From NCBI GenBank assembly GCA_903925685.1, contig CAIYGI010000112.1, positions 1,784 through 65,783 of the forward strand: a stretch of DNA of 64,000 bases, read 5' to 3'. This stretch comes from an uncultured bacterium (GTDB taxonomy: Bacteria > Verrucomicrobiota > Kiritimatiellia > CAIKKV01 > CAIYGI01). The position numbers and the translations under genes were made by a program. Below the pieces are notes generated by a model. That model made no database searches, was not told where the DNA came from, and saw only the letters and a list, made by a program, of their open reading frames with translations. Below are positions 2,935-52,856 of this stretch, in pieces; the first letter of the stretch is position 1, and every line of letters begins with the position of its first letter.

Positions 2935-2967
2935 ATCATAACGTGTGCGGCCTGAATCGGGAAGCCG

Positions 2968-3612
2968 CTATTGCCTCGCGCCCAGCCGGGCTTCCGTCCC
3001 GGCCCACAGGCGGCGCAGGTTTGCGCGGTGGCGTATTACGATCAGGACGCCGATCGCCGACAACGCCACCGTCAGCGCTCCCGGACGCCAGCCCGTCCGC
3101 CACCATTGAAAGAGCGGCACGGCAAGCGCCGCCGTCACGGATCCAAGCGATACGATCCTGCTCAAGGCGAACACCACGGCCCACACCAGCGCCCCAACCG
3201 CAACCGCCGCCGGGGCCAGCCCCAGCAACGCGCCGACACTAGTCGCCACGCCCTTGCCGCCTTTGAAGCGCAGCCAGACCGGCCAATTGTGCCCCGCCAC
3301 CGCCAGTACCGTGAAAAGCACCGCCAACGCATCCGGATCCCACCCCGCGGGCGCACAGCACAGGCGCGGGAAGAACATGACTGGAACGAAGCCCTTGAGC
3401 GCGTCGAGCGCAAAGGTCAGCACGCCCCAGCCCTTGCCCACCGCGCGGAACACGTTGGTGGCGCCGACGTTGCCGCTGCCGACCGTACGGATGTCCACGC
3501 CCTTGATGCGCGCGATCAGGTAGGCGTTTGGAATGGAGCCCAGCAGATAGGCCGCCGCGGCCAGCAGAAACACCGGCAGGAATATGGGCGAGCAAACCGC
3601 CTGACAGGCCAT
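2968..3612 (-). CDS. plsY: glycerol-3-phosphate acyltransferase PlsY
   Basis: 214 aa with AYLLGSIP, GSGNVGATNV and HNWPVWLRFKGGKGVATS motifs. The full length is collinear with E. coli PlsY. Confidence 0.9.
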   Translation of the reverse strand: MACQAVCSPIFLPVFLLAAAAYLLGSIPNAYLIARIKGVDIRTVGSGNVGATNVFRAVGKGWGVLTFALDALKGFVPVMFFPRLCCAPAGWDPDALAVLFTVLAVAGHNWPVWLRFKGGKGVATSVGALLGLAPAAVAVGALVWAVVFALSRIVSLGSVTAALAVPLFQWWRTGWRPGALTVALSAIGVLIVIRHRANLRRLWAGTEARLGARQ

Positions 3613-3619
3613 CTTAGCC

Positions 3620-5514: not shown

Positions 5515-5757
5515 TCAGCCTATCGACCTGGCTTTACTTGCGCGCGGCGGAACGGGGTCCCAGCCGCCGGCATGAAACGGGTGACAGCGGACAATCCGCT
5601 TCAACCCCAGCCATACGCCCCGCGGCGCGCCGTGTGCGCGTATGGCCTCCATCGTATAATGCGAGCATGACGGTTCGAAGCGGCAGCAAGGCCCCAGCAA
5701 CGGCGCCAGCGAAAGCTGGTAGAGACGGATTAGCACCCGCAACAGTCCGGCAATCAC
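5515..5757 (-). CDS. yidD: membrane protein insertion efficiency factor YidD
   Basis: 80 aa (LIRLYQLSLAPLLGPCCRFEPSCSHYTMEAIRAHG), matching the YidD family. It overlaps the rnpA stop by 4 nt. Confidence 0.85.
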   Translation of the reverse strand: MIAGLLRVLIRLYQLSLAPLLGPCCRFEPSCSHYTMEAIRAHGAPRGVWLGLKRIVRCHPFHAGGWDPVPPRASKARSIG

Positions 5758-6158
5758 CGCTCGCCGCCTTCCCGCGCCACCAGCCCCGCGCGCCGCCCCA
5801 GGCGCCGCATTTCATCCACCACCTCGGGCCATGGCGCAAACAACAAATCACGCCGCGCCACGAGGATCAAATCGGCCGCGCCGCGAAAGTGTTCGCGGTT
5901 CAGGCGCCAGGCGGCGCGCAGCCGCCGCTTGGCGCGGGCGCGGGCCACGGCTCCGCCGACTTTACGGCTGGCCACCACGCCGAGGCGCAAGGCGGCGCCC
6001 GGGCCACTGCGGGGATAAAGCACCATCAAACGTCCGCGCGTCGCGCGGCCCTGCGCATAGGCATCTTGAAAAAGCGCGCCGGAGCTGATCCGCTGCGCGC
6101 GGCTCAAGCCCAAATCCGGCGTCCGTTCGCGTTTTGCCTTCTCCGCGCCGTCCGCCAC
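5754..6158 (-). CDS. rnpA: ribonuclease P protein component
   Basis: A basic protein immediately downstream of rpmH, in the conserved rpmH-rnpA-yidD-yidC order. The start may lie internal to the ORF. Confidence 0.75.
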   Translation of the reverse strand: MADGAEKAKRERTPDLGLSRAQRISSGALFQDAYAQGRATRGRLMVLYPRSGPGAALRLGVVASRKVGGAVARARAKRRLRAAWRLNREHFRGAADLILVARRDLLFAPWPEVVDEMRRLGRRAGLVAREGGER

Positions 6159-6181
6159 GGATCCAGTTGGGCTTGCGCCCT

Positions 6182-6316
6182 TTACACCGTCAGGCGTTCG
6201 CGTCCCTTCCGGCGTCGCGCGGACAGAACCCTGCGCCCGTTGTGCGTCGCCATACGCGCCATAAATCCATGTTTGCGCGCCCGTTTCTTGCGCGACGGCT
6301 GATACATCATCTTCAT
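6182..6316 (-). CDS. rpmH: 50S ribosomal protein L34
   Basis: Hand translation of the minus strand gives [44 protein letters not shown] (44 aa). This classic L34 is absent from the ORF track because it is under 60 aa. Confidence 0.9.
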
Positions 6317-6490
6317 AGTGCTTCGCTCTCCTAAAGGCGTTGAATCATACCATCGCCAACCCGCCTGTCAAGGATCAAAACAGGATCAAAACACCATGCA
6401 GTTCTTCAGAAAACCAGAAAACCATCGGGCCTGAGACCGTGTACTTGGACTGGTAGTCCGGAACTGACGCAGAGCGGCGAACCGGAGCGA

Positions 6491-7108
6491 GTGGAGATTG
6501 CCGAGACCGTCGGTGGAGGCCGGGTGGTGCTGCCGATGTTCACGTCCATCGTCAAGGAGCACGTCTCAGGCTGGGAAGGCGAATTCATGCGCCTGCAGGC
6601 GTCCTTCGACAACCCGTGCCCGGCCAATCGAATGCGGGTACAGACCGGTCTTGGCAATGTGATTCGGTACGCGATCGATCAACGCACGGACATGTATCCA
6701 TCGGCTGTGGCCAAACTGCGATGGTTGATCGACGAGGATTGACATGCCCGTCGGGGGCTGGCGGAACTCAGCCGGCAATGCGGCTGCTCGGCCAGTCGGC
6801 TGCGCGTGCTTTTCGAACGGAAATACGGCCAGTCGCCGCAGGTCTACCGGAACAAGCGGCGGATACACATCGCCGCCGACCTGTTGCGTAACAGCGACCA
6901 GCGCATCAAGGAGATCAGCGAACTGATCGGTTGCCGCCATGTCTCGCGCTTTTGCGCCCTGTTCAAGAGCGCCTATGCCATATCCCGTGTGCTGGCAGTT
7001 CACGGGAGGACGGGACACGTCAGCGATGCCATTCAGATTACTGCGCACCAGAGCGGTATAACCGAGCGAGATGGAATCCCCGATGATAAGCACCTTGGGC
7101 AGACTTGA
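6491..7108 (+). pseudogene. AraC-family transcriptional regulator interrupted by an in-frame TGA
   Basis: ORFs 6491..6742 and 6806..7108 share a frame and are separated only by a TGA at 6740-6742. The downstream part (LSRQCGCSASRLRVLFERKYGQSPQVYRNKRRIHIAADLLRNSDQRIKEISELIGCRHVSRFCALFKSAYAI) is a clear AraC-type double HTH. Confidence 0.5.
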
Positions 7109-7234
7109 CGCCTTGCCGGGATTGATGGACGCGTTTGCATCATGCTCATGAAGCTCGCCCTCGACGACACGGGCGCCGGCTACGGCACCGACCAACCCCA
7201 GCAGCATGATCGACGACGCAATGCACTCTTTCAT
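6990..7234 (-). pseudogene. N-terminal remnant of a secreted SGNH/GDSL hydrolase (overlaps the AraC HTH on the opposite strand)
   Basis: The minus ORF 6566..7234 starts with a signal peptide and KVLIIGDSISLGYT (GDSL block I). Its C-terminal half has no SGNH blocks and is antisense to the AraC HTH. It is probably a decayed fragment or a chimeric ORF. Confidence 0.3.
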
Positions 7235-7273
7235 TCCTCCTAAAATTATGCGCCGCTCTCTCCTGGCGGCCTG

Positions 7274-8344
7274 TTAGCGCTGTTCCTGAAGATCGGCGGC
7301 GTCCAGGATGGCGCCGGCCTGGCGCAGGGCCGCCTGCAAGGCCGGCACGTCCACATCCTTGAACCCGCAGCCCGATCTGACTGCCTGACCGGCGGCCTGA
7401 CCGGCGGCCTGGCCCATGGCCATCACCGGCGCCATCAAGCGCAACGGGCCGAGCGCCTCCCACTCCACACTGACGGCCCGGCCCGGGCAGACCAAGTTCG
7501 TGATTGGATGCGGCACCATGATGCGGTATGGGATCGGCGTGTACGGCGGCTTTTCCACGTGCATGGCCCCACCCATGTCCCAGCCGTACGCGCTCAGTCC
7601 GACCGTATCGGGAAACTGACGGTTACCGACAACATCGGCGACGGTCAGCTTGTACTCGCCGACAATGCGCCGGGTTTCCCGCACCCCGAGCATCGGGGCA
7701 ACGGCCTTGACCCGCGCCTTGGAAAAGCCCGGAAAATGCTTCCGCAGCACCCGCAGTAGCGCCAGGTTGGCCGCATGTGCTTTGACGATGCCGGCGGTCA
7801 CGGACGCGCCGTCGGTTCCGGCAATTCCTTCGATGGTGCAGGTGTTGACCATGAACACATCCTTGCCGGTCATCTGCACGCTGACGACTATGTTGTATGG
7901 AAACGGCCATTCGCCGCTGGCTTCCAGCTTCTTGATAAGCTTTTTGAAGCGCGGCTCGTCCTGCGCCTCGATGTATGCGGCCATTAGGAATGGGTCGAAC
8001 GGAATCCCGGCGCCGAGCTGGCCCTGGAACCAACCGTGCGGCTGGTATTTCCGGCCGGGCTCCGGCACAGGCAGGAGCGCGATGCCCTCCCCGACGGCTT
8101 CCTCGGCAAGCTCGCGGAAGATCCCGCCCACGACCCAGCGGCGGCAGTCATTGGCGCGGCCGCCGAGCCAGTGCGAAACGATGCCGGAAGTGCCAGTTCC
8201 GCCCAACTGGGCCTGCGCCTCCACGACCAGCACTTCTAGCCCGGCGCGCTGCGCGGCAAGCGCGGCGGCTATGCCGGCGGGGCCACCGCCGCAGACCACC
8301 GCGTCATAACCCTTCAATATCGGAATGTCTTTGCTCCAATTCAT
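7274..8344 (-). CDS. FAD-dependent oxidoreductase
   Basis: 356 aa with an N-terminal Rossmann dinucleotide motif (YDAVVCGGGPAGIAAALAAQRAGLEVLVVE). This family is common in glycan-degradation loci. Confidence 0.75.
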   Translation of the reverse strand: MNWSKDIPILKGYDAVVCGGGPAGIAAALAAQRAGLEVLVVEAQAQLGGTGTSGIVSHWLGGRANDCRRWVVGGIFRELAEEAVGEGIALLPVPEPGRKYQPHGWFQGQLGAGIPFDPFLMAAYIEAQDEPRFKKLIKKLEASGEWPFPYNIVVSVQMTGKDVFMVNTCTIEGIAGTDGASVTAGIVKAHAANLALLRVLRKHFPGFSKARVKAVAPMLGVRETRRIVGEYKLTVADVVGNRQFPDTVGLSAYGWDMGGAMHVEKPPYTPIPYRIMVPHPITNLVCPGRAVSVEWEALGPLRLMAPVMAMGQAAGQAAGQAVRSGCGFKDVDVPALQAALRQAGAILDAADLQEQR

Positions 8345-8610
8345 GACCGAGTTTTACCCCTTTCGAAACGGCATCGCATCTGCTGCACCGCTTTTTTCAT
8401 GCGTGCCAGGCGCATCGCATAGGCCGTTATCTCCGAAGGGCCGGGCGCGATCTTATCTCCGCCCGGCGCCCGCACGGTCTGCCGTTGCCAGGTGCGGTCC
8501 CATCGCGGGTCAGTCGTCCGCTGGGCCGGTCGGGTCCACGGCCATCGAGCATGTCCCGGTCAAAGCTCCTTTGTGACGCTGAACCCCTTCGACTCCTTCA
8601 ATCAAGGACC

Positions 8611-10932
8611 TCACGACTCCGCAATCAGTTTACCAAACTTTGACGGGACGGCAAAACTCGAAATCCCGGTCGGCGAAAAAGCCGAATGTTCCATGACCTT
8701 GCCTCTGACCCTCTGGCGGCACACGTTGAAATACCAGGGCGCCGCGGCATCCGGCTTCTTTCCCGCAACCCGTTTCCGGCGGTCGAGTCCACCCTCGGGC
8801 GTCTCGCGCGTGGTGGGAATCCGGATTTCCAGGCTCCAGAAATCGGCGCCGCGATAAACGGCGCATTGGGCCTCCGACGCCCACGGCGGATGCCCTCTAT
8901 CCCTGTCAAGATCGATCAGGGCGCCGGCCGCGTTGATCGTAATCTGATAATACGCATGCGACGGAGTCTCCAGGAACAATTCGGCCTCGTCGTCGCTGTA
9001 GATATTTGCGTCGCCATTCTTCGTCGTCGTGACGCTCAGATTGTTCATGTCCGCGTCCGCGCACCGGATCCCAAACACGAGGCTGCCGTCGCTCCACGCG
9101 ACCTGGAATGTGGTCTTGGAGACGGGCGATTTCCCGGTCGCCAGCTCTTTCAACTCATAGACCGACGCGCCTTTCCAGAAAGGCTTGTCCAGGTTGCCGT
9201 CCAGTTTCAGCCCTGCGCCCTTGCGCTCGACGGCCAACGCCTGGGGGGCGCTTTTCCGGATCGCGCTCCATTCTTCCCTGCGTTCTTTGAATTGCGAGAG
9301 ACCATTGACAGCCAGAGCGACGCGCTTGCCGTAGATCGTATCCCCGGCGGCTTTACGAGCTGTGGCCAGCAGTTCCAGGCCTTTATCCAACGATTCTGCG
9401 TTTTTGCCCATGAGCGGATCGGCCGCCTTGGAATAATCCATGAACGCCTTCATCGCATGGGCGGCAGGACCATAGAAGCGGTAGGTGTCCGCCAGGTCTT
9501 CGTAGCGGAAGAGCATGATCAGATCCTGCACGCGGATGGGCGCGGACGCCCCAGCGGCGAGGGTGATCTCGACACGATTCGCTCCCTGCTTGATCGACTC
9601 GCACGGAACCTCAATCTCCAGTTGTCCTTCGCTCCAGACTCCCGTGTTCAAACGCCGGCCATTGAGCGCTACGCTGACGGCGCCGCCGTCCGACACGTTC
9701 CCGGCCTGAACTTGCAGCAAAACCTGCGGGCGAATCACCCCGGCGTTCAGGCCCTTCACGTCTTCTCCAAGATCCAATGGGATTTGCAGTGTTTGGCCGG
9801 GTTTGATTTCTTCCGGTTTGCCGGGGGCGAGGGTTGGTAACTGCTGGAGCCGCTCGCCATCCTTCAGTCCAAAGTGCGGTATTAATCGGTAGCCCAAGGG
9901 GTTGGCATAGTAGACCTTGTCGAGATCCGCCAGGGTCTTGGGATCGCCGAGTTCTCTCCAGAGCGAAAGATACGGTTCGTAACAATTGAACAGGTAAATA
10001 CCATCCACCCCGGCCTGCCAGGCGTTCGCCGCGCGGGCACGGTTGGCCTCGATGCTGTTGCGATTTTTGGCTTCATATCGGTTACACATCTCTGCCCAGG
10101 AATTGTTCAAACACGCATATACGGGCACATCGTGCTGGTGTCCGAGTTGCACCATGTGCGTCCAAGGCTCCAGGAGAAAATCGCCTCCGGCCACCAGCAG
10201 GTCAACCAGATCCTGGTTTAACCAGGCCGAGACATCCAGGCCGATCGCCTGGTCATACGCGAGGGACTCGGATACGCGAACCGCGATGAGGATGGGACGG
10301 GAGCGGCGCGCCCCGATCGTTTCGGTCATCGCGCGAATCCGCCGGAGCAGATCGGTCATCGCATCCAGGTGTTCCTGCCCCAGGGGTTGCCCAAAGGCGT
10401 GCGGCTTGAAAAAGGTCGGGTGCCGAAAAAAATCCAACTCGATGCCGTCGATATCATAGCACTGGCAAACCTGACGGATTTCCTCGAAGGCCCGCTGCCG
10501 GATGGCGGGGTGTCCGTAATCCGCCCCGGACCAACAGCCATACGGAGGATTGTTGTCTTGCGTGTTCAGTAAATATTCCGGATGGTCGCGTTTAAACTGC
10601 GACAAGGGGTGATAGTCACTTTCATCGTGAATGTCATTCATCCTGAACGAACAGAAGATCTCCATCTTTTCCTGGCGGCAGAAATCCGTCATCACGTTCA
10701 TGGGCTCGATCCCATATTCCAGGATATGTGGCGCGCGATCCGTGAACAGACTCACCCGGTTGTAGAAGATGGAATCCACCTGCGATCCGGCCAGCGCTGA
10801 AGTGCGCACATCGAGCAAAGCCTGACGCGACGCTGTAGCTTTGCAGTATTCCTGGTATCCCGCGTCGCAGGCGTCGTTGTTGAAAATGATGCGTCGCTGT
10901 CTCCTGGCTGCCTGCTTGCGCTGTTCTTTCAT
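8611..10932 (-). CDS. putative glycoside-hydrolase-like TIM-barrel protein with C-terminal CBM9-like carbohydrate-binding domain
   Basis: 773 aa. The N-terminus (RIIFNNDACD...RMNDIHDE...DGIELDFFRH) resembles GH-like families. The C-terminus (KLDGNLDKPFWKGASVYEL...TFQVAWSDGSLVFGIRCADADM...WSLEIRIP) resembles CBM9-like domains. Confidence 0.6.
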   Translation of the reverse strand: MKEQRKQAARRQRRIIFNNDACDAGYQEYCKATASRQALLDVRTSALAGSQVDSIFYNRVSLFTDRAPHILEYGIEPMNVMTDFCRQEKMEIFCSFRMNDIHDESDYHPLSQFKRDHPEYLLNTQDNNPPYGCWSGADYGHPAIRQRAFEEIRQVCQCYDIDGIELDFFRHPTFFKPHAFGQPLGQEHLDAMTDLLRRIRAMTETIGARRSRPILIAVRVSESLAYDQAIGLDVSAWLNQDLVDLLVAGGDFLLEPWTHMVQLGHQHDVPVYACLNNSWAEMCNRYEAKNRNSIEANRARAANAWQAGVDGIYLFNCYEPYLSLWRELGDPKTLADLDKVYYANPLGYRLIPHFGLKDGERLQQLPTLAPGKPEEIKPGQTLQIPLDLGEDVKGLNAGVIRPQVLLQVQAGNVSDGGAVSVALNGRRLNTGVWSEGQLEIEVPCESIKQGANRVEITLAAGASAPIRVQDLIMLFRYEDLADTYRFYGPAAHAMKAFMDYSKAADPLMGKNAESLDKGLELLATARKAAGDTIYGKRVALAVNGLSQFKERREEWSAIRKSAPQALAVERKGAGLKLDGNLDKPFWKGASVYELKELATGKSPVSKTTFQVAWSDGSLVFGIRCADADMNNLSVTTTKNGDANIYSDDEAELFLETPSHAYYQITINAAGALIDLDRDRGHPPWASEAQCAVYRGADFWSLEIRIPTTRETPEGGLDRRKRVAGKKPDAAAPWYFNVCRQRVRGKVMEHSAFSPTGISSFAVPSKFGKLIAES

Positions 10933-10953
10933 CTCGTAATTCCTCCTGTTGGT

Positions 10954-11271
10954 CTATTCATATTGTGTTCGCAAGCGGTTCGTTTTCAGCCGCGATCCAC
11001 GGACCAGCGTTCCGCGTTTTCCAACAATTCCTGCGCCTCGTCTTCCGATTTCGCAGAGGTCTCGATCAAGGGTGAACCGGTAATTACGGTCCTCCTTGTC
11101 GAGCTTGAGGTTTTGGAACTCGATGTCTTCTCCCAATAGAATGGGATCCCACCAACCGGTCTTCCAATCCAGTGAGGTTGGACATCCCAGAAAGGTCGGG
11201 ATGCATTTATGGCCGGGATAACCTCCATGCCAGACCGGCAAAGCTTCGCCGCCATAAAACGTGCGAAACAT
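10954..11271 (-). CDS. hypothetical small protein
   Basis: A 105-aa ORF between the DUF1080 and GH-like genes, co-oriented with both. No motif was recognised. The overlapping alternative-frame ORF 10986..11276 is rejected. Confidence 0.3.
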   Translation of the reverse strand: MFRTFYGGEALPVWHGGYPGHKCIPTFLGCPTSLDWKTGWWDPILLGEDIEFQNLKLDKEDRNYRFTLDRDLCEIGRRGAGIVGKRGTLVRGSRLKTNRLRTQYE

Positions 11272-36017: not shown

Positions 36018-36620
36018 ATGCCCTTGATTCTGGCCTCTCAGTCCACCGCGCGCGCGGCGTTGCTAACCGCCGCCGGCTATGCGTTCGTCCAGGAAGCGTC
36101 GGGGGGTTTGGAGCCGCCCGCCGCTCCCGGCGAGTCTTGGGAAACCCATCTGCAAACCCTGGCCGCGGCCAAGGCCCGAGCCGTGGCCGCCCGCCATTCC
36201 AATGACTGGGTGCTGGGCGCCGACACGGCGCTCTGGTTCGAAGGCGCCTGTCTTGGCAAGGCCGCCACCGCCGCCGCGGCCGAGGCCATGTTGATCCGGC
36301 TGGCCGGGCGCAAGCACACCATCGCCACGGCTGTCTGCCTGATCGCCCCCGCCGCGAAAGGCTCCGTCGCGCGCGCGCGGCGCCAGGGAATCGCCCGCGC
36401 CACGATCGAGTTGCGCGCCTGGTGCCCGTCCAAAATCCACCGCTATGTTTCCGCCGCGCGCCCGTTCGACTGCGCCGGCGCCTACGCCCTGCAGGGCGGC
36501 GGAGCATCCATCGTCGCCGCCATCCGCGGCGATCCCTCCACCGTCATCGGCCTGCCGCTCACGCTCGTCGAACGCCTCCTGCAGGAGGCGGGCTTCCCGC
36601 GCGACATGACAATCGCCTGA
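36018..36620 (+). CDS. maf: Maf-like nucleoside triphosphate pyrophosphatase
   Basis: The N-terminus LILASQSTARAALL and the length (200 aa) match the Maf/YhdE family. Confidence 0.7.
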   Translation: MPLILASQSTARAALLTAAGYAFVQEASGGLEPPAAPGESWETHLQTLAAAKARAVAARHSNDWVLGADTALWFEGACLGKAATAAAAEAMLIRLAGRKHTIATAVCLIAPAAKGSVARARRQGIARATIELRAWCPSKIHRYVSAARPFDCAGAYALQGGGASIVAAIRGDPSTVIGLPLTLVERLLQEAGFPRDMTIA

Positions 36621-36634
36621 CACTGAACACCCCA

Positions 36635-37390
36635 ATGAGCCGCATCCGCATACTGGTCGCCGAGGATGACCGTCATATCCGGCAGGGACTGCTCGACACG
36701 CTCGACGGCGAGGGTTACGAGGCGCTGGGCGCGGCGGATGGGGACGAGGCGCTGCGGCTCTTCCAGACGCAGCGGGCCGACCTGGTGCTGCTGGACATCA
36801 TGATGCCCGGCCGCAGCGGCTTCGATGTCTGCCGCGAAATCCGCCGCCGCGACACGCACACGCCGATTCTGATGCTGACCGCCAAGAACGAGGAGATCGA
36901 CAAGGTGCTCGGCCTCCAACTCGGCGCCGACGATTACCTCACCAAGCCCTTCGGCGTCCACGAGCTGCTGGCGCGCGTCGCGGCGCTGCTGCGCCGCTGC
37001 CGGCGCGGTGACGCGGCGGCGGCGGATGGCGGCGCCAAAGCTGACAAACTGCCGGATGTCTTAACGATGGGCGCCGCCGAAATACACCGCAAAACCTACA
37101 CGATCCGGCGCGGCCGCCAGACGGCCTCCGTCACGGCCCAGGAAATGCGGGTCATCGAAGCGCTGGCGCGCCATCCCGACGAAGTGCTCAGTCGCGACCG
37201 CCTGCTGAATGAAGCCTGGGGCGTGGACTACGCCGGCACAACGCGCACGCTCGATCAGCACATCGCGCAGTTGCGCAAAAAAATCGAGTCCGACCCCGCC
37301 GATCCGCGGATCATTGTCACCGTGCATGGCGTGGGATACATTTACCGTTTGACGACTGTTGGCCATGCGCCGCGAATGCATCCGGAGTGA
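36635..37390 (+). CDS. OmpR-family response regulator (receiver + winged helix)
   Basis: MSRIRILVAEDD...DLVLLDIMMPGRSGFDVCREIR...TPILMLTAKNEE...LGADDYLTKPF, and the C-terminal wHTH ends IIVTVHGVGYIYRL. No histidine kinase is adjacent. Its 3' end carries one copy of the 41-bp repeat that flanks the inserted TA cassette. Confidence 0.85.
   Translation: MSRIRILVAEDDRHIRQGLLDTLDGEGYEALGAADGDEALRLFQTQRADLVLLDIMMPGRSGFDVCREIRRRDTHTPILMLTAKNEEIDKVLGLQLGADDYLTKPFGVHELLARVAALLRRCRRGDAAAADGGAKADKLPDVLTMGAAEIHRKTYTIRRGRQTASVTAQEMRVIEALARHPDEVLSRDRLLNEAWGVDYAGTTRTLDQHIAQLRKKIESDPADPRIIVTVHGVGYIYRLTTVGHAPRMHPE
37307..37347. repeat. left copy of a 41-bp imperfect direct repeat flanking the AbiEii cassette
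   Basis: cggatcattgtcaccgtgcatggcgtgggatacatttaccg (encodes RIIVTVHGVGYIYR of the response regulator). Confidence 0.8.
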
Positions 37391-38157
37391 AAAACCAGCA
37401 ACCCGGCGGCCAACGCAGACGGGATGGTTTCGACGGTTCCAGTGAACAGACGACCAGCCGCATCCAGAACGCAACATCCGATGGCATCTTCCGGCAACAC
37501 GGCAACCGTGCTCTCCGCATCGTTTAACAATATCCGCCATTTCGCGCCCAGCGCAACCGGATCGGGCGCAGTTCCGTCAAAGGCCAGCGTTTCGATTTCC
37601 TCGCGCGAATAGTGGGCGGAGCGTCTGGCTTGCTCCAAAATGAAAGCCGGGGTCAACCCCGGATCCTTGCCGCACGCCGCCCAGACCAAGAAACCGAACG
37701 GCTGCAATTTTTCGTGGCAGGTGATCGCATCGATCCAATCCCGGACCTCAACACGCCCGACCAGCGCCAGCACTTTGTTGGTGGCCAAATCGAACGGGTG
37801 CAGGGCCAATCCGAAGTCAGGGTGTTCAATCAGAGGAAAAAAACGATACGCGCTGTCCTGCACCCACTGGAGCAATACCCCGTCACGTCCTCTGGTAATT
37901 TCCGCCTCCACAAAGGTGGCGTATTCCCTCATCGCATTGACCTCAAACCCGTTTCTCTCAAGGGTGATCCGGTCGGCCCTCCAAGCCGCAAGCAACGCAT
38001 CCTTGGTATCGTGGAATAAATCGACATCGTACGACCGTCGCGCCGCCGTCAGCAATTCGTTGAGTGCCGCCCCGCCGGCGACGTACTGCTCCCCGCGCGC
38101 CATGCGCTCGTTCGCCAAAGTTCTGCAAACCGCTCTCTGGTATTCGGTTAGAGACAT
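37342..38157 (-). CDS. nucleotidyltransferase toxin, AbiEii/MenT (DUF1814) family
   Basis: 271 aa. The N-terminus QYVAGGAALNELLTAARRSYDVDLFHD matches the DUF1814 GG...S.D[LI]DF motif. The gene overlaps the response-regulator 3' end convergently. Confidence 0.7.
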   Translation of the reverse strand: MSLTEYQRAVCRTLANERMARGEQYVAGGAALNELLTAARRSYDVDLFHDTKDALLAAWRADRITLERNGFEVNAMREYATFVEAEITRGRDGVLLQWVQDSAYRFFPLIEHPDFGLALHPFDLATNKVLALVGRVEVRDWIDAITCHEKLQPFGFLVWAACGKDPGLTPAFILEQARRSAHYSREEIETLAFDGTAPDPVALGAKWRILLNDAESTVAVLPEDAIGCCVLDAAGRLFTGTVETIPSALAAGLLVFHSGCIRGAWPTVVKR

Positions 38158-38417
38158 TTCATCAACTTCCTGACCGTCACATAGGTTTGCCGGTCCCCGT
38201 GCTTCTCAAGCAACTTGGCGCAACGGATCAAGTCATCGTCGGTCCGCGGAACGAAGTCCTGCCGCAGAAACCATCCGCAAAACAAACGGTTCCTCGCCCA
38301 CAATTTGCTGACTTGTTCACGCATGACCGGTGTGAGTTCCATGTCATAACCTCTTTCAAAGCCGATTCTACCTAATCGCCATTCGCTTGTCAGCATCGGA
38401 TCATTGTCACCATGCAT
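38148..38417 (-). CDS. small protein upstream of AbiEii-like toxin, putative cognate antitoxin
   Basis: An 89-aa ORF overlapping the toxin start by 10 nt. Its first seven codons (MHGDNDP) are encoded by the reverse complement of the duplicated response-regulator 3' end, so the real start may be the internal Met (MLTSEWRL...). No confident family call. Confidence 0.35.
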   Translation of the reverse strand: MHGDNDPMLTSEWRLGRIGFERGYDMELTPVMREQVSKLWARNRLFCGWFLRQDFVPRTDDDLIRCAKLLEKHGDRQTYVTVRKLMKCL

Positions 38418-38437
38418 GGCGTAGACTATATTTACCG
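38397..38437. repeat. right copy of the 41-bp imperfect direct repeat (a remnant second copy of the response-regulator 3' end)
   Basis: cggatcattgtcaccatgcatggcgtagactatatttaccg. In the response-regulator frame it reads RIIVTMHGVDYIYRKGSKR-stop, and the stop overlaps the ATG of the A2M gene. Confidence 0.8.
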
Positions 38438-38452
38438 AAAGGGGTCAAAGCG

Positions 38453-41400
38453 ATGAACACAACGAAACGTCTGGTAAAAACTCCGCGGATATATCCCATC
38501 GCGCCCGCCCTGGCGGCCTGCGCCGCGCTGTTATGCCTTTTGGCAGGCGTCCAGACGGCGGCGGCCAGCGTGGTTGAGTCGGAAACCGTGGCCGGCGATT
38601 ATGCCGGTCTCAAAGCGCAGGCCGAAGCGTATTACGCCCAACATTCCTACGCCCTGGCGCGCGATGCCTATCTGCTCGCCACCAATCTCGCTCCCTCCGC
38701 GCCCGAACGGCGTTGGACGTCCTTCCGCATCGCCGACACCCGCTGGCGCGCGCAGGCCGGCAGCAAGACCGCCGACGCCACGGCCTTCGAACAGGCGCAA
38801 CGCGAACTGGACGCCCTGGTGCGCGACGTGAGCCGGGTCGAGGACCGCGACCGCGTCTGGGCCGAGGCTCAGGAATCGCTGGGCGATTTTTCCTGGACCC
38901 GCCGCGATGGACGCGACTGGAATGCGGCCTGGCCGCGCTATGCGCAGGCGCTCGACTGGCGGGCCGGACAGACGAACAGCGCCGCCAACCGCGCGCGCTA
39001 CCTGGAAATCGTCTGGAAAGCCGCCGATAACGGACAGGACGACCCTTACTATCGTTACGGCTGGCACGGCAACGCCGTTCCGACGCCCATCCTGGCGAAC
39101 GCGGTAAAAGTGGCCCAGGACGAGACCGCCCGCGCCCATGCGCACTATTTGATTGCCATGCAGTTCATGCGCGGCAGCGACAACGACCAGCGCGCGCGGG
39201 TGCCGGATGAATTGGCAGCCGCCCAGACGCCGGGCAAAAGCTGTCCTTGGTACGACGATGCGCTCTTCCATGAAGCCGAGTGGCTGGAAAACAACGGCCG
39301 CGTCACGCTCGACGACGACGGCAACTGGCAGCAGAAACCGGACTACGGTGGCGCCGTCAAACTCTACCGGCGACTGCTCAAGGAATTCGCCAAGGGTGAG
39401 TCGCGCTATGTTGAGGAGGCACGCGCGCATCTCGACAACCTCGTCAACCCGCGGTTAGGCGTAGCCGTCGGATCCGTCTTCCTGCCAGGCTCGGAGGTCC
39501 AGTTCCAGTTCAGCAGCCGCAATCTGCCCGACGTGCGCTTCAGCCTTCAGCATGTTGCGCTGCCCGAAGCCGTACGCTTCGCGGCCGGGGACAATTCGCT
39601 GCAGGAATGGACGCGCCATATTCCAACCGGCGGCGAGATCGTCACCAACTGGAGCCGCGCCACCAACGACAAGGGCGGGCACGTCCCGTTCAACGAAACC
39701 GTGCGCCTGGAAGCTCCGCTCGCGCCCGGCGCCTACCTGCTCGAAGCCCGCTCCGGCACCAACAGCGCGCGTGACGTAATCATCGTCAGCGATATCACGC
39801 TCGTGACAAAATGCAGCGGGCGGCAGATCGTGGTCTATGCCTGCGATGCGCTTTCCGGCGTTCCCGTGCCCAACCTGGCCCTGCGCTTGTGGATGCGTTA
39901 CACGCAGGAGCGGCAGTCGCGCTTCGAGTCGCGCGACGGGGTGACCGGCGAGGACGGCTTGGCGAAGTTCGACATCAGCCGCAACCGTGACAGCCGCGAC
40001 AATACATTCCTGATCCTCGCCCAGTCCGGCGACCGCCAGGCCTTCACCTTTGCAGGGAGTTCCTGGTATTCCCCCACCCCGGACGCCTGGAAACTCTACG
40101 CGTTCACCGACCGTCCCGCCTACCGGCCGGGCGACGAAGTGAAGTGGAAACTGATTGCCAGGCAAACCTCCCAGGAGGGCGCCTTCCTCACCCCCGCCAA
40201 TCAACCACTGCACTACCGCATCCACGATCCTCGCGGGCAGACCTTGCGGGAGGCGGACTTCACCACCTCATCCTTCGGCAGTTACTCCGGCAGTTTCACG
40301 ATGGCCTCCAATCAGCCGCTCGGCGAATACACGATCGAGTTCTGGACCGGCCCCGGCCAGGCCGCGCACATCGGCCAAGCCGCGCTTTTCCGCATGGAGG
40401 AGTATAAACTTCCCGAATTCCGCGTCACCGTCCGTACACCGGAGGAAAACGGCCGGCGGCGGACTTTCCGCCTGGGCGACACCGTATCGGCCGAGATCCA
40501 GTGCGAACTCTATGCCGGCGGTCCGGTGGCCAACGCCGCCTGCGAGGTGCTGGTTCGCCAGCGCCCCTTCTTCCGTTATTGGCGGCGTCCCCATGACTTC
40601 GACTGGTACTACGCCGACATGCAGCCGAATTTCAACCGCGGCTTCAACGAGGGCGCCATCGTGAAGCGCGAAACGCTGCGCACCGACGCCCAGGGGCGCG
40701 CGCAGATCGCCTTCGACACGCCTAGCGATGGCGGGCAGGATCTGGAGTACAGCTTCGAGGCGCGCGTCACCGACGCCTCGCGCCGCGAGATCGCCGGCGC
40801 CGGAGTCGTCCGCGTCACGCGCCAGCGTTACTACGCCAACCTTGAACCCGACCACCAGCTCTACCGTCCGCAGGACCGCGTGCGCATTAGCGTCAGCGCC
40901 GGCGACGCCAACGAACAAGCCGTGCAGGTCGCGGGCGTCATCAAGGTCCAGCGCAGCCGCTGGGTCGAGGTCTGGCGCTCGCCGGAGGGACGCGAGGTTA
41001 CCGGCACAGCCCTGCGCGATGCGCGGCGCGCCTGCGCAATCTTCCCCCCCACCCCGGCGCCCGGCAAACCGGGCTGGGCGCAACTGCGCTGCGGCTTCGA
41101 ATCGGAACCCGTGCTCGAACATCCGCTCAACCTCGACAGCCAGGGCAAGGCGGAGTGTACCTTCACGCCCGAGCGCGAGGGTTACTACCGCGTCAGCTGG
41201 CGCGGCAAACAAAAGGGCGAACCGGCGGTAAGCGCCGAGTGTACCGTCTGGGTCGCCACTGAGGCCAGCGCCGACCTGGGCTACCGCAAGGGCGGATTGC
41301 AGATCGTCGCCGACCGCGACACCTTCCGCGAAGGCCAGACGGCGCCGATCATGCTATCGGCCCCCAATGGCGGCTGCCACGTGCTTTTCACCGTCGAGAC

Positions 41401-44365
41401 CGACGAACTGCTCGACGTACAGGTCGTAAAAATGGACGGCGACGTAAAACTGCTGGCGCTGCCGATCCGCGCGCGGCATGTGCCGAACGTCGTGCTCAGC
41501 GCCGCGATGGTCGCCGATCGCGCGCTGTTGACCGATGAGTTGCCCATCGTCGTGCCGCCCGTGCGCAACTTCCTCAATGTAACCGTCGCCGCCGACAAGC
41601 CGCTCTATCAGCCCCGAGAGACCGGCACATTACGTGTCACGGCGCGCGATTGGAATGACCGCCCCGTCGCGGCGGAGGTGGCGCTCTCGCTTTTCGACGA
41701 GTCGGTCACCTATATTCAATCGGAATATGCCGGCGACATCCGGCAGTTCTTCTATGGCGACAAGCGCCCGCACAGCGTGCAAACCAGCAGCAGTTTTCAG
41801 CAACGGCCCTATCTCAAACTGGTGCGCGAGGAAGGGCGGCTGATAGACGTCCGCGAGCAGCGTGCGCACGCCGAACGGCAGTTCAATGATGGAGGAGTTG
41901 GCAACGAGCGAGAGCGGCGCGAAATCGACTCCGACGGTCCAATCAATGGCCGATTGGTTATGCGAGACAAGAAGAATGCGGTGAAAGGCGGGGAAAACTC
42001 AGCCGTCATTGTACGCTCTGACTTCCGCGCCACGGTACTGTGGCAGCCGGCGGTGCTGACCGATGCCAATGGCGAGGCCGTGGTCCCGATCGCCTTCCCC
42101 GACTCGCTGACTGCCTGGCGCGCCAGCGCCCGTGCCGTCACCAGCGGTCAGCAGTTTGGCAACACCAACCTGACCCTGCACACCAAGCTGCCGCTGGTCG
42201 CGCGTCTCCAGACGCCGCGCTTTTTGGTGGCGGGCGACGAGGTGACCATCTCCGCCGTCTTCAACAACCATACCGCTTTGCCCATCAAGGTGCTTCCCGA
42301 ACTCAAGGCCGCCGGCATCACCCTGCGCGGCTGGCTGCGCGGCGGCGAACTGCAGCGCGAGGCGCCGGACGCCGTCGATGTGCCGCCCGAAGGCGAGGCG
42401 CGCGTGGACTGGCGCGCCGCCGCCGAAACTACCGGCGAGGCGCGCCTGGAACTGCGCGCCCGCGCCGGCTCTTACAGCGACGGCATGAGCGCGTCATGTC
42501 CGGTGCTGGAGCATGGCGTTGAAACCACCATCACCCGCTCGGGCCGCGCACTGGGCGATGACGTGCGCCTGCGCTTCGATCTGCCCAAGGCCCGCCGTCC
42601 GAATTCCGCCACGCTGACGGTGCAGGTCACGCCGAGTCTCGCCGTGACGATGCTCGATGCGCTGCCCTATCTGTTGGACTACCCCTATGGCTGCGTCGAA
42701 CAGACCATGAGCCGCTTTCTGCCGGCGGTGATCGTCCGGAAAACGCTCGCCGATCTGGGGCTCAAGCCCGAGGCCGTGGCCGACCGCATCTTTGGCGGCA
42801 TCGAGGCGGCAACCGCGGACAAGACCCATCCGCAAGGCGCGCAAAACATGCAGCGGCTGTCGGCCATCGTCAGCGGCGGACTGACCCGTCTCTACGACTT
42901 CCAGCACGCCGATGGCGCGTGGGCCTGGTGGAAGGAAGGCGACAGCGACCGCTTCATGACCGCCTACGTGGTGTATGGTCTGGCGCTCGCCCGTCAGTCG
43001 GGTGTTGAGGTCAAACCCGGCGTCGCCGAACGCGGCGCGGCCTGGCTGGATAAGGAACTGGTGACGGAGGAGGCCAACCCGGACATGCAGGCATGGATGC
43101 TGCAAGCCCTGGGCGAATGGCAGTGCGCGAACGGCGCCAAAGAACCCAGCGCCTTCCAGAACAAGGCCCTGGATAACGTCTGGACCCAGCGCGACCGTCT
43201 CAACGGCTGCACCCGCGCCCTGGCGGCGCTGGCCGCCAAACGCTTCGGCCGCGCCGATCAGGCCCGCGTGTATGTGGATAATCTGCGCAACGGCATTCAG
43301 GTGGACGACCGGCCCGACCAGTCCATCGTACAAACAGGTGTGCCGCAGAGCAGCACCGGGCAAAGCTACGCCGTCACCGCCACCGCCCACTGGGGCGAGG
43401 ACGGCATAGCCTGGCGCTGGTCCGACGGCGGCGTCGAAGCCACCGCCAACGCCCTGCGCGCCTTGCTGGCGGTGGATCCAAAGCATCCGCTCGTCGCGCC
43501 GACCGTGCAGTGGCTCGTCAAAAACCGCCGCGGTGCGCAGTGGAGCAACACCCGCGACACGGCGCTGGTTGTGCTGGCGCTGAACGATTACCTGCGCGTC
43601 AGCGGCGAACTTGGCGCCAGCGAGTCCTACGAGCTGCGCGTCAACGGCCAGCGCGTGGCCGTGGAACAGATCACGCCCGAGACCGTGCTCAGCGCGCCGG
43701 GCCGTTTCGAGATCGCCCCCGGACTGCTGCGCGACGGCGCGAACGAGGTGCGCATCATGCGCACGGATGCGACCAATGGCGCGCTCTACGTCTCGGTCTG
43801 CGCCAAATTCTTCAGTCTGGAGGAGCCGATCCCGCCGGCGGCCAGCGAGCTTTTCCTGCAGCGCCACTATTACCGCTTCGTCGGCCATCCCAGTCTGCTT
43901 AAGGGCTGGGTCTACGAACGCCAACCGCTGCCCGACCAGGGCGCTGTAACGAGCGGCGAGCGGATTGAAACCGCGCTGACGCTGGAGGTCAAGAATAACG
44001 CCGAGTACCTGATCCTGGAGGATCTCAAGCCCGCCGGACTGGAAGCCGTGGCGCTGCGCAGCGGCGAGGCGCTTGACGCGCGCGAACTGACCAGGGACGG
44101 CGCCGCGCGGGCGCCCGACCGGCGCGAGGCCGGCGACTATACCGGCCGCACCCGCCGCGTGTATCAGGAACTGCGCGACCGTAAGCTGGCGATCTTCATC
44201 GACAAACTCCCGCAGGGCATCTGGGAATTAAGATGCGAAATGCGCGCCGAGACCCCCGGCCGCTTCCACGGCCTGCCCGCACTGGGCCAGGCCATGTATG
44301 TGCCGGAAATCCGCGCCCACACCGCGGAGCAGCGCATTACCGTGGAAGACCGCAGCGAGAAATAG
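38453..44365 (+). CDS. bacterial alpha-2-macroglobulin family protein (thioester-containing)
   Basis: 1970 aa with a signal peptide. It has the MG-domain architecture and the thioester motif YPYGCVEQTMSRF (CxEQ). The start was chosen at MNTTKRL (38453). Confidence 0.85.
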   Translation: MNTTKRLVKTPRIYPIAPALAACAALLCLLAGVQTAAASVVESETVAGDYAGLKAQAEAYYAQHSYALARDAYLLATNLAPSAPERRWTSFRIADTRWRAQAGSKTADATAFEQAQRELDALVRDVSRVEDRDRVWAEAQESLGDFSWTRRDGRDWNAAWPRYAQALDWRAGQTNSAANRARYLEIVWKAADNGQDDPYYRYGWHGNAVPTPILANAVKVAQDETARAHAHYLIAMQFMRGSDNDQRARVPDELAAAQTPGKSCPWYDDALFHEAEWLENNGRVTLDDDGNWQQKPDYGGAVKLYRRLLKEFAKGESRYVEEARAHLDNLVNPRLGVAVGSVFLPGSEVQFQFSSRNLPDVRFSLQHVALPEAVRFAAGDNSLQEWTRHIPTGGEIVTNWSRATNDKGGHVPFNETVRLEAPLAPGAYLLEARSGTNSARDVIIVSDITLVTKCSGRQIVVYACDALSGVPVPNLALRLWMRYTQERQSRFESRDGVTGEDGLAKFDISRNRDSRDNTFLILAQSGDRQAFTFAGSSWYSPTPDAWKLYAFTDRPAYRPGDEVKWKLIARQTSQEGAFLTPANQPLHYRIHDPRGQTLREADFTTSSFGSYSGSFTMASNQPLGEYTIEFWTGPGQAAHIGQAALFRMEEYKLPEFRVTVRTPEENGRRRTFRLGDTVSAEIQCELYAGGPVANAACEVLVRQRPFFRYWRRPHDFDWYYADMQPNFNRGFNEGAIVKRETLRTDAQGRAQIAFDTPSDGGQDLEYSFEARVTDASRREIAGAGVVRVTRQRYYANLEPDHQLYRPQDRVRISVSAGDANEQAVQVAGVIKVQRSRWVEVWRSPEGREVTGTALRDARRACAIFPPTPAPGKPGWAQLRCGFESEPVLEHPLNLDSQGKAECTFTPEREGYYRVSWRGKQKGEPAVSAECTVWVATEASADLGYRKGGLQIVADRDTFREGQTAPIMLSAPNGGCHVLFTVETDELLDVQVVKMDGDVKLLALPIRARHVPNVVLSAAMVADRALLTDELPIVVPPVRNFLNVTVAADKPLYQPRETGTLRVTARDWNDRPVAAEVALSLFDESVTYIQSEYAGDIRQFFYGDKRPHSVQTSSSFQQRPYLKLVREEGRLIDVREQRAHAERQFNDGGVGNERERREIDSDGPINGRLVMRDKKNAVKGGENSAVIVRSDFRATVLWQPAVLTDANGEAVVPIAFPDSLTAWRASARAVTSGQQFGNTNLTLHTKLPLVARLQTPRFLVAGDEVTISAVFNNHTALPIKVLPELKAAGITLRGWLRGGELQREAPDAVDVPPEGEARVDWRAAAETTGEARLELRARAGSYSDGMSASCPVLEHGVETTITRSGRALGDDVRLRFDLPKARRPNSATLTVQVTPSLAVTMLDALPYLLDYPYGCVEQTMSRFLPAVIVRKTLADLGLKPEAVADRIFGGIEAATADKTHPQGAQNMQRLSAIVSGGLTRLYDFQHADGAWAWWKEGDSDRFMTAYVVYGLALARQSGVEVKPGVAERGAAWLDKELVTEEANPDMQAWMLQALGEWQCANGAKEPSAFQNKALDNVWTQRDRLNGCTRALAALAAKRFGRADQARVYVDNLRNGIQVDDRPDQSIVQTGVPQSSTGQSYAVTATAHWGEDGIAWRWSDGGVEATANALRALLAVDPKHPLVAPTVQWLVKNRRGAQWSNTRDTALVVLALNDYLRVSGELGASESYELRVNGQRVAVEQITPETVLSAPGRFEIAPGLLRDGANEVRIMRTDATNGALYVSVCAKFFSLEEPIPPAASELFLQRHYYRFVGHPSLLKGWVYERQPLPDQGAVTSGERIETALTLEVKNNAEYLILEDLKPAGLEAVALRSGEALDARELTRDGAARAPDRREAGDYTGRTRRVYQELRDRKLAIFIDKLPQGIWELRCEMRAETPGRFHGLPALGQAMYVPEIRAHTAEQRITVEDRSEK

Positions 44366-51944: not shown

Positions 51945-51979
51945 CCACCCTCCACCCTCCACCATCCACCATCAACCTT
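51945..51979 (+). repeat. heptamer tandem array A (CCACCCT x2, CCACCAT x2, CAACCTT)
   Basis: Immediately downstream of the comF stop and about 50 nt upstream of the zinc-ribbon gene. Confidence 0.85.
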
Positions 51980-51983
51980 CTTC

Positions 51984-52703
51984 CTAGCCGCCGCGGGCAA
52001 CCGTGGCGACGAAAACGCGCCAGGCGCCGGCGGCGCGCAAGGCGCGCGCACATTCTCCGACCGTGCTTCCGGTTGTCATCACATCATCCACCAGCAGCAA
52101 CCGCCGCCCTCGCACCCAGCCTGGGTCGGCCACGGCGAAAGCGCCGCGCACGTTTTCGGCGCGCGCGGGGGCGCTGAGGCGGGTTTGCGTGGCAGTTGGG
52201 CGGATGCGGCTCAGCAGGCGCGGCATCAGCGGCAGGCCGCGGCGGCGGGCCAGGTCGGCGGCCAGCAGACGGGACTGGTTGTAGCCGCGCTCGCGTTCGC
52301 GCGCCGGGTAGAGCGGCACGAAGCAAACGGCATCCAACAGTTCGTCGCTGTAATGCGCGCGCACGCAACCTTCCAGAAGTTCGCCGAGGTCTGGGGCCAG
52401 GTGAATGGCGCCCTGGTATTTGAAGGCGTGCAGGAGATCGCGGATCGCGCCGTGGTAGCGGACCGCGGAGCGGGCGCGCTCGAAGGGCGGCGTCTTGTCG
52501 CGGCACCAGCCGCAGACGAACTCCGCCTCGGTCACGCCCTCGGCGGGATCGCCGCAGACGGAGCAGAAGGGCGGCGCGATCAGCGGCAGCCCGGCGACGC
52601 AATCCCAGCAAAGGTGCCCGGCATCCAGTCCCGGCGGCTGTCCGCAGGACGCGCAGGCGCGCGGAAATGCGAGGTCAAGCAATGACCGCCAGAATTGGCG
52701 CAT
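51984..52703 (-). CDS. comF: ComF family protein (phosphoribosyltransferase-type competence protein)
   Basis: An N-terminal double zinc-ribbon (CASCG...CWDC...CSVCG...CGWC) and a C-terminal PRTase motif [14 protein letters not shown]. Confidence 0.85.
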
Positions 52704-52792: not shown

Positions 52793-52856
52793 CTTCCACC
52801 CTCCACCCTCCACCTTCCACCCTCCACCTTCCACCCTTCACCTTCCACCCTTCACA
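52793..52856 (+). repeat. heptamer tandem array C, about nine copies of CCACCYT (CCACCCT/CCACCTT/TCACCTT)
   Basis: ccaccctccaccctccaccttccaccctccaccttccacccttcaccttccacccttcac, between the mtnP stop and the comF promoter. Confidence 0.85.

Follow-up and report, generated by a model that had tools for sequence, protein, structure and literature searches.

Integrase-encoding elements that enter the ends of genes supply a replacement end, as known for tRNA-gene islands and for the lambdoid phage 21 and e14 in icd. Target-site duplications have a length that is fixed for each element, i.e. 2–15 bp for transposons, about 14–15 bp for casposons, and one repeat length for CRISPR spacer integration. 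At rhs and cdiA loci, homologous recombination in a conserved region joins the incoming piece to the gene in frame, and a new functional tip comes with it. We know of no bacterial element with long, variable-length target duplications at nearly any site. Here we analyzed a 64,000-nt stretch of DNA from an uncultured bacterium of the Kiritimatiellia (contig CAIYGI010000112.1 of assembly GCA_903925685.1, positions 1,784 to 65,783; hereafter the window), in which a two-gene toxin-antitoxin (TA) cassette has been inserted into the 3' end of a response-regulator gene between two copies of a 41-nt direct repeat. The spread of chromosomal TA modules without recombinases is a long-standing puzzle, and this locus gives a base-resolved view of the situation before and after. 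The duplication is a signature of how this cassette family inserts.

The closest described relatives of the cassette itself are the AbiE (AbiEi/AbiEii) type IV TA or abortive infection systems and the MenAT systems (DUF1814, PF08843). DUF1814 toxins are described with four conserved motifs: motifs I and II, which are of the Pol-beta type and bind metal and nucleotide, motif III, and the DUF1814-specific motif IV (PMC7450476). In MenAT1 (Rv0078B-Rv0078A) of Mycobacterium tuberculosis, the DUF1814 toxin occurs with a "much shorter, unrelated antitoxin" (PMC7450476). The TA module in the window is a divergent member of this known toxin superfamily with an unclassified partner.

A two-gene insert with empty sites in relatives

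The interrupted gene (36635–37390, + strand) encodes an OmpR-family response regulator of 251 aa (Pfam Response_reg, 2e-32; Trans_reg_C, 1e-25), in which residues 1–238 are native and the Trans_reg_C domain covers residues 163–236. The end of this DNA-binding domain, RIIVTVHGVGYIYR, is encoded by the functional copy of the repeat (copy 1; 37307–37347, +). Repeat search and alignment located the other copy at 38397–38437 on the same strand (copy 2), a displaced remnant of the regulator 3' end (RIIVTMHGVDYIYR). The two copies, with a start-to-start spacing of 1090 nt, match at 36 of 41 positions. The repeat and its coordinates had been given in a preliminary description made from the sequence alone, where the identity was put at about 83%; the actual value is 88%. 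Self-comparison of the 64-kb window yielded only four direct-repeat pairs at E ≤ 1e-3, among which the 41-nt pair was the second best, and two of the other three involved ccaccctccacc-type simple repeats near 52,800.

The sequence between the copies is an insert of 1049 bp (37348–38396) made up of a promoter, an antitoxin candidate gene and a toxin candidate gene, all on the minus strand. The claim that exactly two minus-strand genes lie between the copies was borne out, as no other conserved open reading frame (ORF) was found there. The small ORF (38342 down to 38148) overlaps the start of the 271-aa ORF (38157 down to 37342) by 10 nt. The insert is only 48 bp longer than these two ORFs and ends inside the last toxin codons, with the final arginine codon and stop of the toxin gene (37342–37347) lying inside repeat copy 1. 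The final 13 codons of the regulator (LTTVGHAPRMHPE and the stop, 37349–37390) are, conversely, the antisense of the toxin-gene 3' end. Beyond copy 2 lies a bacterial alpha-2-macroglobulin (A2M) gene of 1970 aa (38453–44365, +; Pfam MG2, A2M_BRD, A2M, TED_complement and bMG10). Read in the regulator frame, copy 2 encodes RIIVTMHGVDYIYRKGSKR and runs, just as had been described, to a TGA stop (38454–38456) that overlaps the A2M start codon (ATG, 38453–38455). The GC content was 0.52–0.60 in the insert and 0.63–0.73 in the flanks. Among the 21 repeat pairs found, none was an inverted repeat at the insert ends (37348 and 38396). The 1049-bp insert holds only the two ORFs, and no transposase or integrase ORF or integrase remnant was detected in it. 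No palindromic element was seen at either insert end, no scan with an attC model being made; since the insert stops 6 nt before the toxin stop codon, it could not accommodate the attC site of an integron cassette. The region gave no matches in Rfam and tRNA scans.

A search with the regulator protein returned two close orthologs of 242 aa, P0122 (92% identical, ending in YIYRKESK) and P0123 (89% identical, ending in YIYRKGSK). At the related regulator-A2M junctions of L007–L011 and L012, the orthologous A2M gene comes directly after the regulator gene; there is one 41-nt copy and no cassette. The A2M gene on these empty-site contigs lies on the same strand as the regulator gene, and its product likewise begins with MNT...; the window A2M was 76% identical to its L007 ortholog over the N-terminal 500 aa. 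In contrast to these empty sites, the metagenome-assembled genome (MAG) GCA_025360745.1 (L001), whose toxin is 91% identical, carries the cassette and both repeat copies. Independent assemblies of the window's own strain (L004–L006) have the same filled arrangement, and it is therefore not an assembly artefact. The DNA identity of the regulator gene to the window was 94.7% for L001, 92.1% for L012 and 87.0% for L007. Hence, the filled genomes form a derived pair within the empty-site relatives, which fits one insertion on the branch of the window and L001. The preliminary description had proposed the insertion of a TA module into the 3' end of the regulator gene and a rebuilt regulator C-terminus, and this reading is supported by the empty sites in L007–L012 together with the filled site in L001.

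Compared with the empty-site ortholog in L012, copy 1 showed 1 mismatch in 41 positions and copy 2 showed 4. From these differences, both copies derive from the resident gene, with copy 2 decaying. The derived changes in copy 2 (a G>D codon and a C>T in a -10 hexamer) are common to the window and L001, whereas neither copy 1 nor the empty sites have them, so that copy 2 has been decaying since before the split of the filled lineages. In the empty sites, the native regulator tail (KGSK or KESK, followed by the stop) is present, and a 77-nt spacer separates the regulator stop from the A2M leader. As the filled allele lacks both, the empty sites cannot be derived from the present filled configuration. 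The "KGSKR" tail and stop that follow copy 2 align with the A2M leader and ribosome-binding site of the empty sites (cgaaaggggNcNaagcgATG). The original 3' end was left behind as a remnant, as had been suggested, in the form of copy 2, while this tail belongs to the A2M leader and is not the old regulator tail.

Some further differences were seen around the repeat. At repeat position 7 (37313 and 38403), both window copies have A and both L001 copies have G; this concerted difference suggests gene conversion between the copies after the window and L001 split. The spacer of the empty sites (L007 4121–4197; L012 937–985) contains aggctgt heptamer repeats and is bracketed by similar sequences of 15–20 nt (tttacagaaaaggatccaaa and tttaacgaaaggggcccaag). 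The spacer may have arisen as a small insertion; alternatively, the window lineage may have lost it through a deletion between the bracketing repeats. In L001, a 120-bp element at about 5645–5765, similar to a miniature inverted-repeat transposable element (MITE) and with terminal inverted repeats (atcctcgcctaaggacgtt ... aacgtcgttaggcgaggat), sits exactly between the promoter-side edge of the cassette and copy 2 (window 38396/38397); it is absent from the window.

A consensus promoter scan of 1.4 kb gave 3 sigma-70-like sites, where 0.4 were expected. The minus-strand site CTGACA-17-TAGAAT (38365–38393; 10/12 consensus matches) begins 3 nt inside the insert edge and is predicted to drive the cassette. 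Copy 2 carries a promoter-like TTGTCA-17-TATATT (38404–38432, +) that points at the A2M gene, and copy 1 has a weaker equivalent, TTGTCA-17-TACATT (37314–37342, +). The -10 hexamer of copy 2 is improved by the C>T change that the window and L001 have in common and the empty-site orthologs lack. Since the cassette lies in opposite orientation between the regulator and A2M genes, copy 2 may have been recruited as a promoter for A2M. The host operon would in this way absorb the hit, the regulator gaining an accidental tail of 13 residues and the 41-bp remnant possibly serving as the A2M promoter.

Toxin and antitoxin candidates

The toxin candidate (37342–38157, minus strand) is a protein of 271 aa that was assigned on the basis of its predicted fold, its homologs and PADLOC. 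Searched directly against Pfam and NCBIfam, it gave no match even at E ≤ 10, and PDB sequence, Pfam and NCBIfam searches with the protein or a family profile returned nothing usable. The PADLOC AbiEii model matched weakly, with E = 0.005 over residues 24–59 and 0.026 over residues 118–147. The protein has more than 3,700 homologs, with 58–91% identity among the top 120. PF08843 (AbiEii) was matched at E ≤ 0.01 by 35 of 42 sampled homologs (58–91% identical), with a best value of 1.4e-7. An AlphaFold2 (AF2) model built on the homolog alignment had a predicted local distance difference test score (pLDDT) of 88 and a predicted TM-score (pTM) of 0.86. In a Foldseek search against the PDB, the top match of this model was MenT4 (6y56; E 1.7e-5, TM-score 0.51), followed by TglT/MenT3 (6j7n; 9.5e-5) and MenT1 (8an5_B and 8an4_B), with other Pol-beta-fold enzymes ranking lower. 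Because its homologs match PF08843 and its predicted fold is MenT-like, we assign the protein as a divergent AbiEii/MenT-type nucleotidyltransferase. The earlier label of AbiEii/DUF1814 is consequently supported through homologs and predicted fold, although Pfam and NCBIfam do not allow it to be read from the window protein.

Residues G28, D44, D46 and D50 (GG-x14-DVD), K128, R135, R139, D140 and D143 were invariant in the 42 homologs. The two PADLOC segments (24–59 and 118–147) cover the regions of these residues, and the invariant residues appear to agree with the four-motif description of DUF1814 toxins (PMC7450476). By homology, the toxin would block translation by adding nucleotides to the 3' ends of tRNAs. 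The cassette resembles AbiE and MenAT in being bicistronic, with the partner gene upstream and overlapping, and the window toxin likewise has a predicted Pol-beta-type nucleotidyltransferase fold; its GG...DxD motif and the invariant K128, R135, D140 and D143 in its C-terminal half may be further common features. Unlike these systems, it has no Pfam or NCBIfam match of its own, and it reaches TM-scores of only about 0.5 against MenT structures.

The antitoxin candidate (38148–38342, minus strand) is a helical protein of 64 aa, regarded as such from its position and conservation. The preliminary description had given this gene as an 89-aa ORF whose start was built from the repeat itself. This start, at 38417 inside the repeat, is an artefact of choosing the longest ORF: the gene was called with 64 aa in six independent assemblies, all five database homologs have this length, and in L001 the 120-bp insertion separates the repeat region with the 89-aa start from the small gene. 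A Shine-Dalgarno-like GAAAGAGG lies upstream of the ATG of the 64-aa gene. In nearly all of the genome loci listed, the toxin gene has upstream of it a small ORF that shares these motifs: C-G/L-W-F-L-R ... H-G-D-R. A word-indexed homolog search with the 64-aa protein gave 5 matches only, and an exhaustive profile search for the family gave about 109 representative clusters. The AF2 model consists of 3–4 helices (pLDDT 82.7).

The 64-aa protein and six diverse family members had no match in Pfam or NCBIfam. A Foldseek search of the 64-aa model against the PDB, with the MenAT1 complex 8an5 in the library, gave no match at E ≤ 0.001 (best E 3.7). An identity as an AbiEi/COG5340-type antitoxin was rejected, these being two-domain proteins of about 200–300 aa with an N-terminal winged helix-turn-helix, and the 64-aa helical partner has no similarity to them. 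MenAT1 is similar in that a DUF1814-type toxin is paired with a short antitoxin candidate, while the window toxin, with 271 aa, is longer than MenT1 (about 185–190 aa). A likeness to MenA1 was not supported, the 64-aa model having given no fold match to the MenAT1 complex. The position and conservation of the 64-aa protein suggest that it would neutralise the toxin, and we propose it as a candidate for an antitoxin family without annotation.

Flanking repeats across the cassette family

The family was found in Kiritimatiellia, Lentisphaerae, Verrucomicrobia, Planctomycetes, Acidobacteria, Rokubacteria, Polyangia and Spirochaetes. For 80 loci from species-representative genomes, the sequence upstream of the small gene was sought downstream of the toxin gene. 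Repeats in direct orientation that scored 39 bits or more were present at 12 of 79 loci, compared with 1 of 79 in an inverted-orientation control (Fisher p = 0.002). With narrow windows, the numbers were 7 of 71 loci and 2 of 228 pseudo-cassettes shifted by 3–4.5 kb (p = 0.0008), and both matches in the shifted control were of another kind, an internal gene repeat and a repetitive extragenic palindrome (REP)-like element (L019 and L087). L063 was excluded as a duplication, since its match is explained by similar N-terminal regions in two flanking ORFs, and L013 was counted together with the window, leaving nine clear other loci. The candidates L157 and L109/L110 were likewise rejected, their repeats being dispersed repetitive elements.

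Hence, at least nine other independent loci of the family, from several phyla, have locus-specific flanking repeats of 38–109 bp, which originate from local gene ends, a tRNA or intergenic DNA. The repeats of L039 and L067 are at least 109 bp (97% identity) and at least 90 bp (96%) long, respectively, and those of L048 (68 bp) and L018 (44 bp) are 100% and 91% identical. In L022, a 71-bp repeat (97%) corresponds to the 5' coding end of a SpoU-type methylase gene, and the cassette edge now supplies the first eight codons of this gene. The 98-bp repeat of L033 (87%) comprises the last 32 codons of a T2SS-F gene, which belongs to a tight operon, together with its stop. In L086, a 49-bp repeat (100%) reaches from the anticodon stem-loop of tRNA-Glu to the 3' end and thus covers the 3' half of the tRNA. 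The repeats of L075 (50 bp, 82%) and L060 (43 bp, 84%) correspond to the 3' end of an HhH-GPD glycosylase gene and the 5' end of an amidohydrolase gene, respectively; this same HhH-GPD gene abuts the cassette at the gene's 3' end in four planctomycete genomes, L075 and three others. Two further candidates are L136, from the metagenome set, with a 67-bp repeat, and L015, with 82-bp repeats and extra cargo that includes a Y1 transposase gene.

Each repeat of the family is two-copy within its locus. Among the repeats of the nine loci, no words of at least 7 nt were found in common, and a search across the family revealed neither conserved ends of the cassette nor inverted repeats nor an att-like core in common. 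Five independent loci have inserts of 1049–1197 bp for about 1000 bp of coding sequence, and the tightest inserts extend 53–153 bp upstream of the small gene and -6 to +71 bp past the toxin stop. In cassettes with 81–87% DNA identity in unrelated contexts, the common part reaches from the small-gene start to the toxin stop only, and beyond it the alignment of the flanks is no better than that of shuffled sequence. L093 and L095, whose cassettes are the closest in other contexts (77–80% DNA identity), were checked and had no flanking repeats. As far as our literature search could tell, long, variable, target-derived flanking duplications across a cassette family are undescribed; the search covered TA cassettes, long target-site duplications and illegitimate recombination and did not find the pattern, and its incomplete coverage makes it weak evidence of novelty. 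Such duplications provide a searchable criterion for recent insertions and make the mechanism testable.

Several loci had particular features. In L015, an IS200-like gene (Y1_Tnp, E 9e-13; 7067–8104, minus strand) lies inside a 2.8-kb repeat-bounded segment that encloses the TA cassette. In L048, a VapBC-like pair (3–673) lies on one side of the cassette and, judged by eye, an apparent classical AbiEi/AbiEii pair (2414–3847) on the other; the locus would then be a small cluster of TA modules. L089 may be a second case of insertion at the 3' end of an OmpR-type regulator gene: its cassette is convergent to such a gene (41% identical to that of the window), with an 18-nt repeat on both sides (about 5759–5776 and 7016–7033) made of the regulator's last codons (YRFDG and stop), which is not significant on its own. 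In L023, the cassette (about 5980–6870) lies between leuC and leuD within the operon, with about 20 nt of flank per side and no promoter of its own; its repeat is only 9 bp (TCGAAAGG) and covers ribosome-binding sites.

Origin of the duplications

We consider the best overall explanation to be the insertion of the cassette with target duplication, by break-and-fill or template switch and without an element-encoded recombinase (probability about 0.6). A foreign two-gene cassette of 1.05 kb entered right after regulator codon 238 in the common ancestor of the window organism and MAG GCA_025360745.1, after its split from the empty-site lineages, and duplicated 41 bp of resident target DNA. Copy 1 still completes the DNA-binding domain of the regulator, and copy 2 is the decaying remnant in front of A2M. 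The sequences show the insertion, its polarity, the copying of resident DNA and the pattern across the family, whereas the physical route is a proposal. A widely and variably staggered break could have been filled in, so that the target stretch came to lie on either side of a short captured fragment; alternatively, a replication template switch that re-entered behind its departure point could have copied the same target to both sides. The tight boundaries may reflect a bias to short captured fragments together with selection for a complete module. We favour these routes because they explain the variable repeat lengths, the arbitrary targets and the short inserts. The addiction exerted by the TA module would protect the insert: deletion through the repeats, easy for 1 kb between repeats of 40–100 bp, would kill the cell. 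The footprint thereby suggests why such insertions are seen for addictive genes in particular, for which repeat-mediated deletion would be lethal. The cassette of L023, with almost no flanks, is also what a captured-fragment bias would produce.

A target duplication of widely varying length, combined with the lack of a recombinase, inverted repeats or a common core, means that the vehicle of the family is not ordinary transposition, integron recombination or a single site-specific integrase. The repeats do resemble the duplications made by transposons, casposons and CRISPR in being target-derived direct repeats, which implies staggered joining to two strands. The family differs from all of these in repeat lengths that vary from 38 to more than 100 bp and in having no transposase, Cas1 or terminal inverted repeats. 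There is also a likeness to the "orphan" toxin tips of rhs and cdiA, where an incoming module replaces the 3' end of a gene, the old end is left downstream, and a stretch of the gene is repeated; the window cassette, unlike these, is antisense and has no relation to the host gene, which gained its new tail by accident.

Several observations weigh against the explanation favoured here. About 85–90% of the family loci have no detectable flanking repeat, so the repeat may mark only some insertions, or only recent ones. Empty sites were retrievable for none of the other repeat-flanked loci, at which we infer the repeats to be insertion-associated duplications. The L086 repeat is the classical footprint of a tyrosine integrase, and that of L033 ends exactly at the stop codon; both would also fit a copy of the target that was borne by the element. 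The sequences point to no particular enzyme or process and do not separate a staggered break from a template switch. Moreover, all data come from MAGs and metagenome contigs. A broader reading, which we hold tentatively and at less than even odds, is that the cassette family constitutes a minimal mobile element, either self-promoting or moved by host or trans-acting machinery, that inserts almost anywhere with duplications of 38 to more than 100 bp and is kept by addiction.

The most serious rival, though an unlikely one, is a Campbell-type integration, in which a circle with the cassette and a piece of the target gene (41 bp here, 38–109 bp elsewhere) would have entered through one crossover by RecA or phage-type annealing. 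The circle could have come from an existing insertion whose repeats recombined, or from a donor that already had the cassette beside an orthologous gene and from which it was excised imprecisely. Repeats of 38–109 bp or more are usable by homologous recombination, and a donor that differs from the recipient would yield non-identical repeats from the start. The topology predicted for such an event, with a functional copy beside the cassette and a displaced copy beyond it, is found in the window, L033 and L075, and the recurrence at the HhH-GPD 3' end in four planctomycete genomes fits as well. The agreement of both copies at position 7 within each genome (A in the window, G in L001) suggests that the copies do recombine, and the process could spread an existing insertion among relatives. 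It cannot, however, create a repeat at a new target and does not account for how the cassette first gains a new piece of target. At least nine different targets are seen, and the 81–87% DNA-identical cassettes in unrelated contexts have no common flanks. Moreover, both window copies look resident, with copy 1 at a single mismatch from L012, and the native tail of the regulator was not restored. Duplicated gene-terminal segments are typical of integrases that target the ends of tRNA and protein genes, and a larger integrase island that had entered the regulator 3' end through site-specific recombination and later lost all but its addictive TA pair would leave its attL and attR as the repeats. 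The arrangement of a duplicated terminal target segment, with the functional copy adjoining and the remnant beyond, matches such gene-end elements, as does the position of the L086 repeat in the 3' half of tRNA-Glu, spanning the anticodon stem-loop to the 3' end. TA modules are also common cargo of such elements (e.g. PMC11062541). We nevertheless regard this origin as improbable: an insert with only 48 bp beyond its ORFs, and five loci at 1049–1197 bp, are too tight for random decay, there is no integrase or integrase remnant in or near the window insert and no common att core among the family repeats, the targets are many and unrelated and include a gene split near its 3' end (L075), and the native C-terminus was lost rather than restored.

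Compared with insertion with target duplication, two other accounts of the window locus itself fared worse still. If the cassette were ancestral and had been lost by repeat recombination in the L007 and L012 lineages, recombination of the 41-bp repeats would give a clean single-copy junction, and an empty site alone gives no polarity. The chances of this are very slim, as the empty sites keep the 77-nt spacer and the native KGSK or KESK tail that the filled allele lacks, the identities place the filled sites as a derived clade inside the empty ones, the GC content of the insert is foreign, and the 13-codon tail of the regulator is antisense toxin sequence. A coincidental similarity of 41 nt, or one created by metagenome assembly, deserves practically no credence. 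The C-termini of the OmpR family are conserved, so that a paralogous fragment could mimic a repeat; yet there are only four repeat pairs in 64 kb, and this one brackets the insert to the base. Independent assemblies have the structure too, as does a second species-level MAG, in which the derived mutations recur, and the copies have diverged, whereas assembly artefacts are exact.

Two neighbouring regions gave minor observations. To the left of the regulator lies a Maf gene (36018–36620, +), whose stop is separated from the regulator ATG by 14 nt in the window (36620–36635). In L001, a 3.6-kb block with a DUF4928 protein, a Dcm-type DNA methylase and Vsr (7527–11200) lies between the two genes; a 15-nt remnant of the Maf 3' end is found 70 nt upstream of the regulator, and the C-terminal tail of Maf is different there. 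No long flanking repeats were found at this insertion, which thus gives no sign that every insertion in this lineage brings long repeats. Farther along the window, the ccaccctccacc-type simple repeats (51945–51980 and 52795–52855) flank a ComF-like gene (51984–52703, minus strand), and related genomes hold similar short-unit intergenic repeats (ccttcagccttcag and aggctgtaggctgt).

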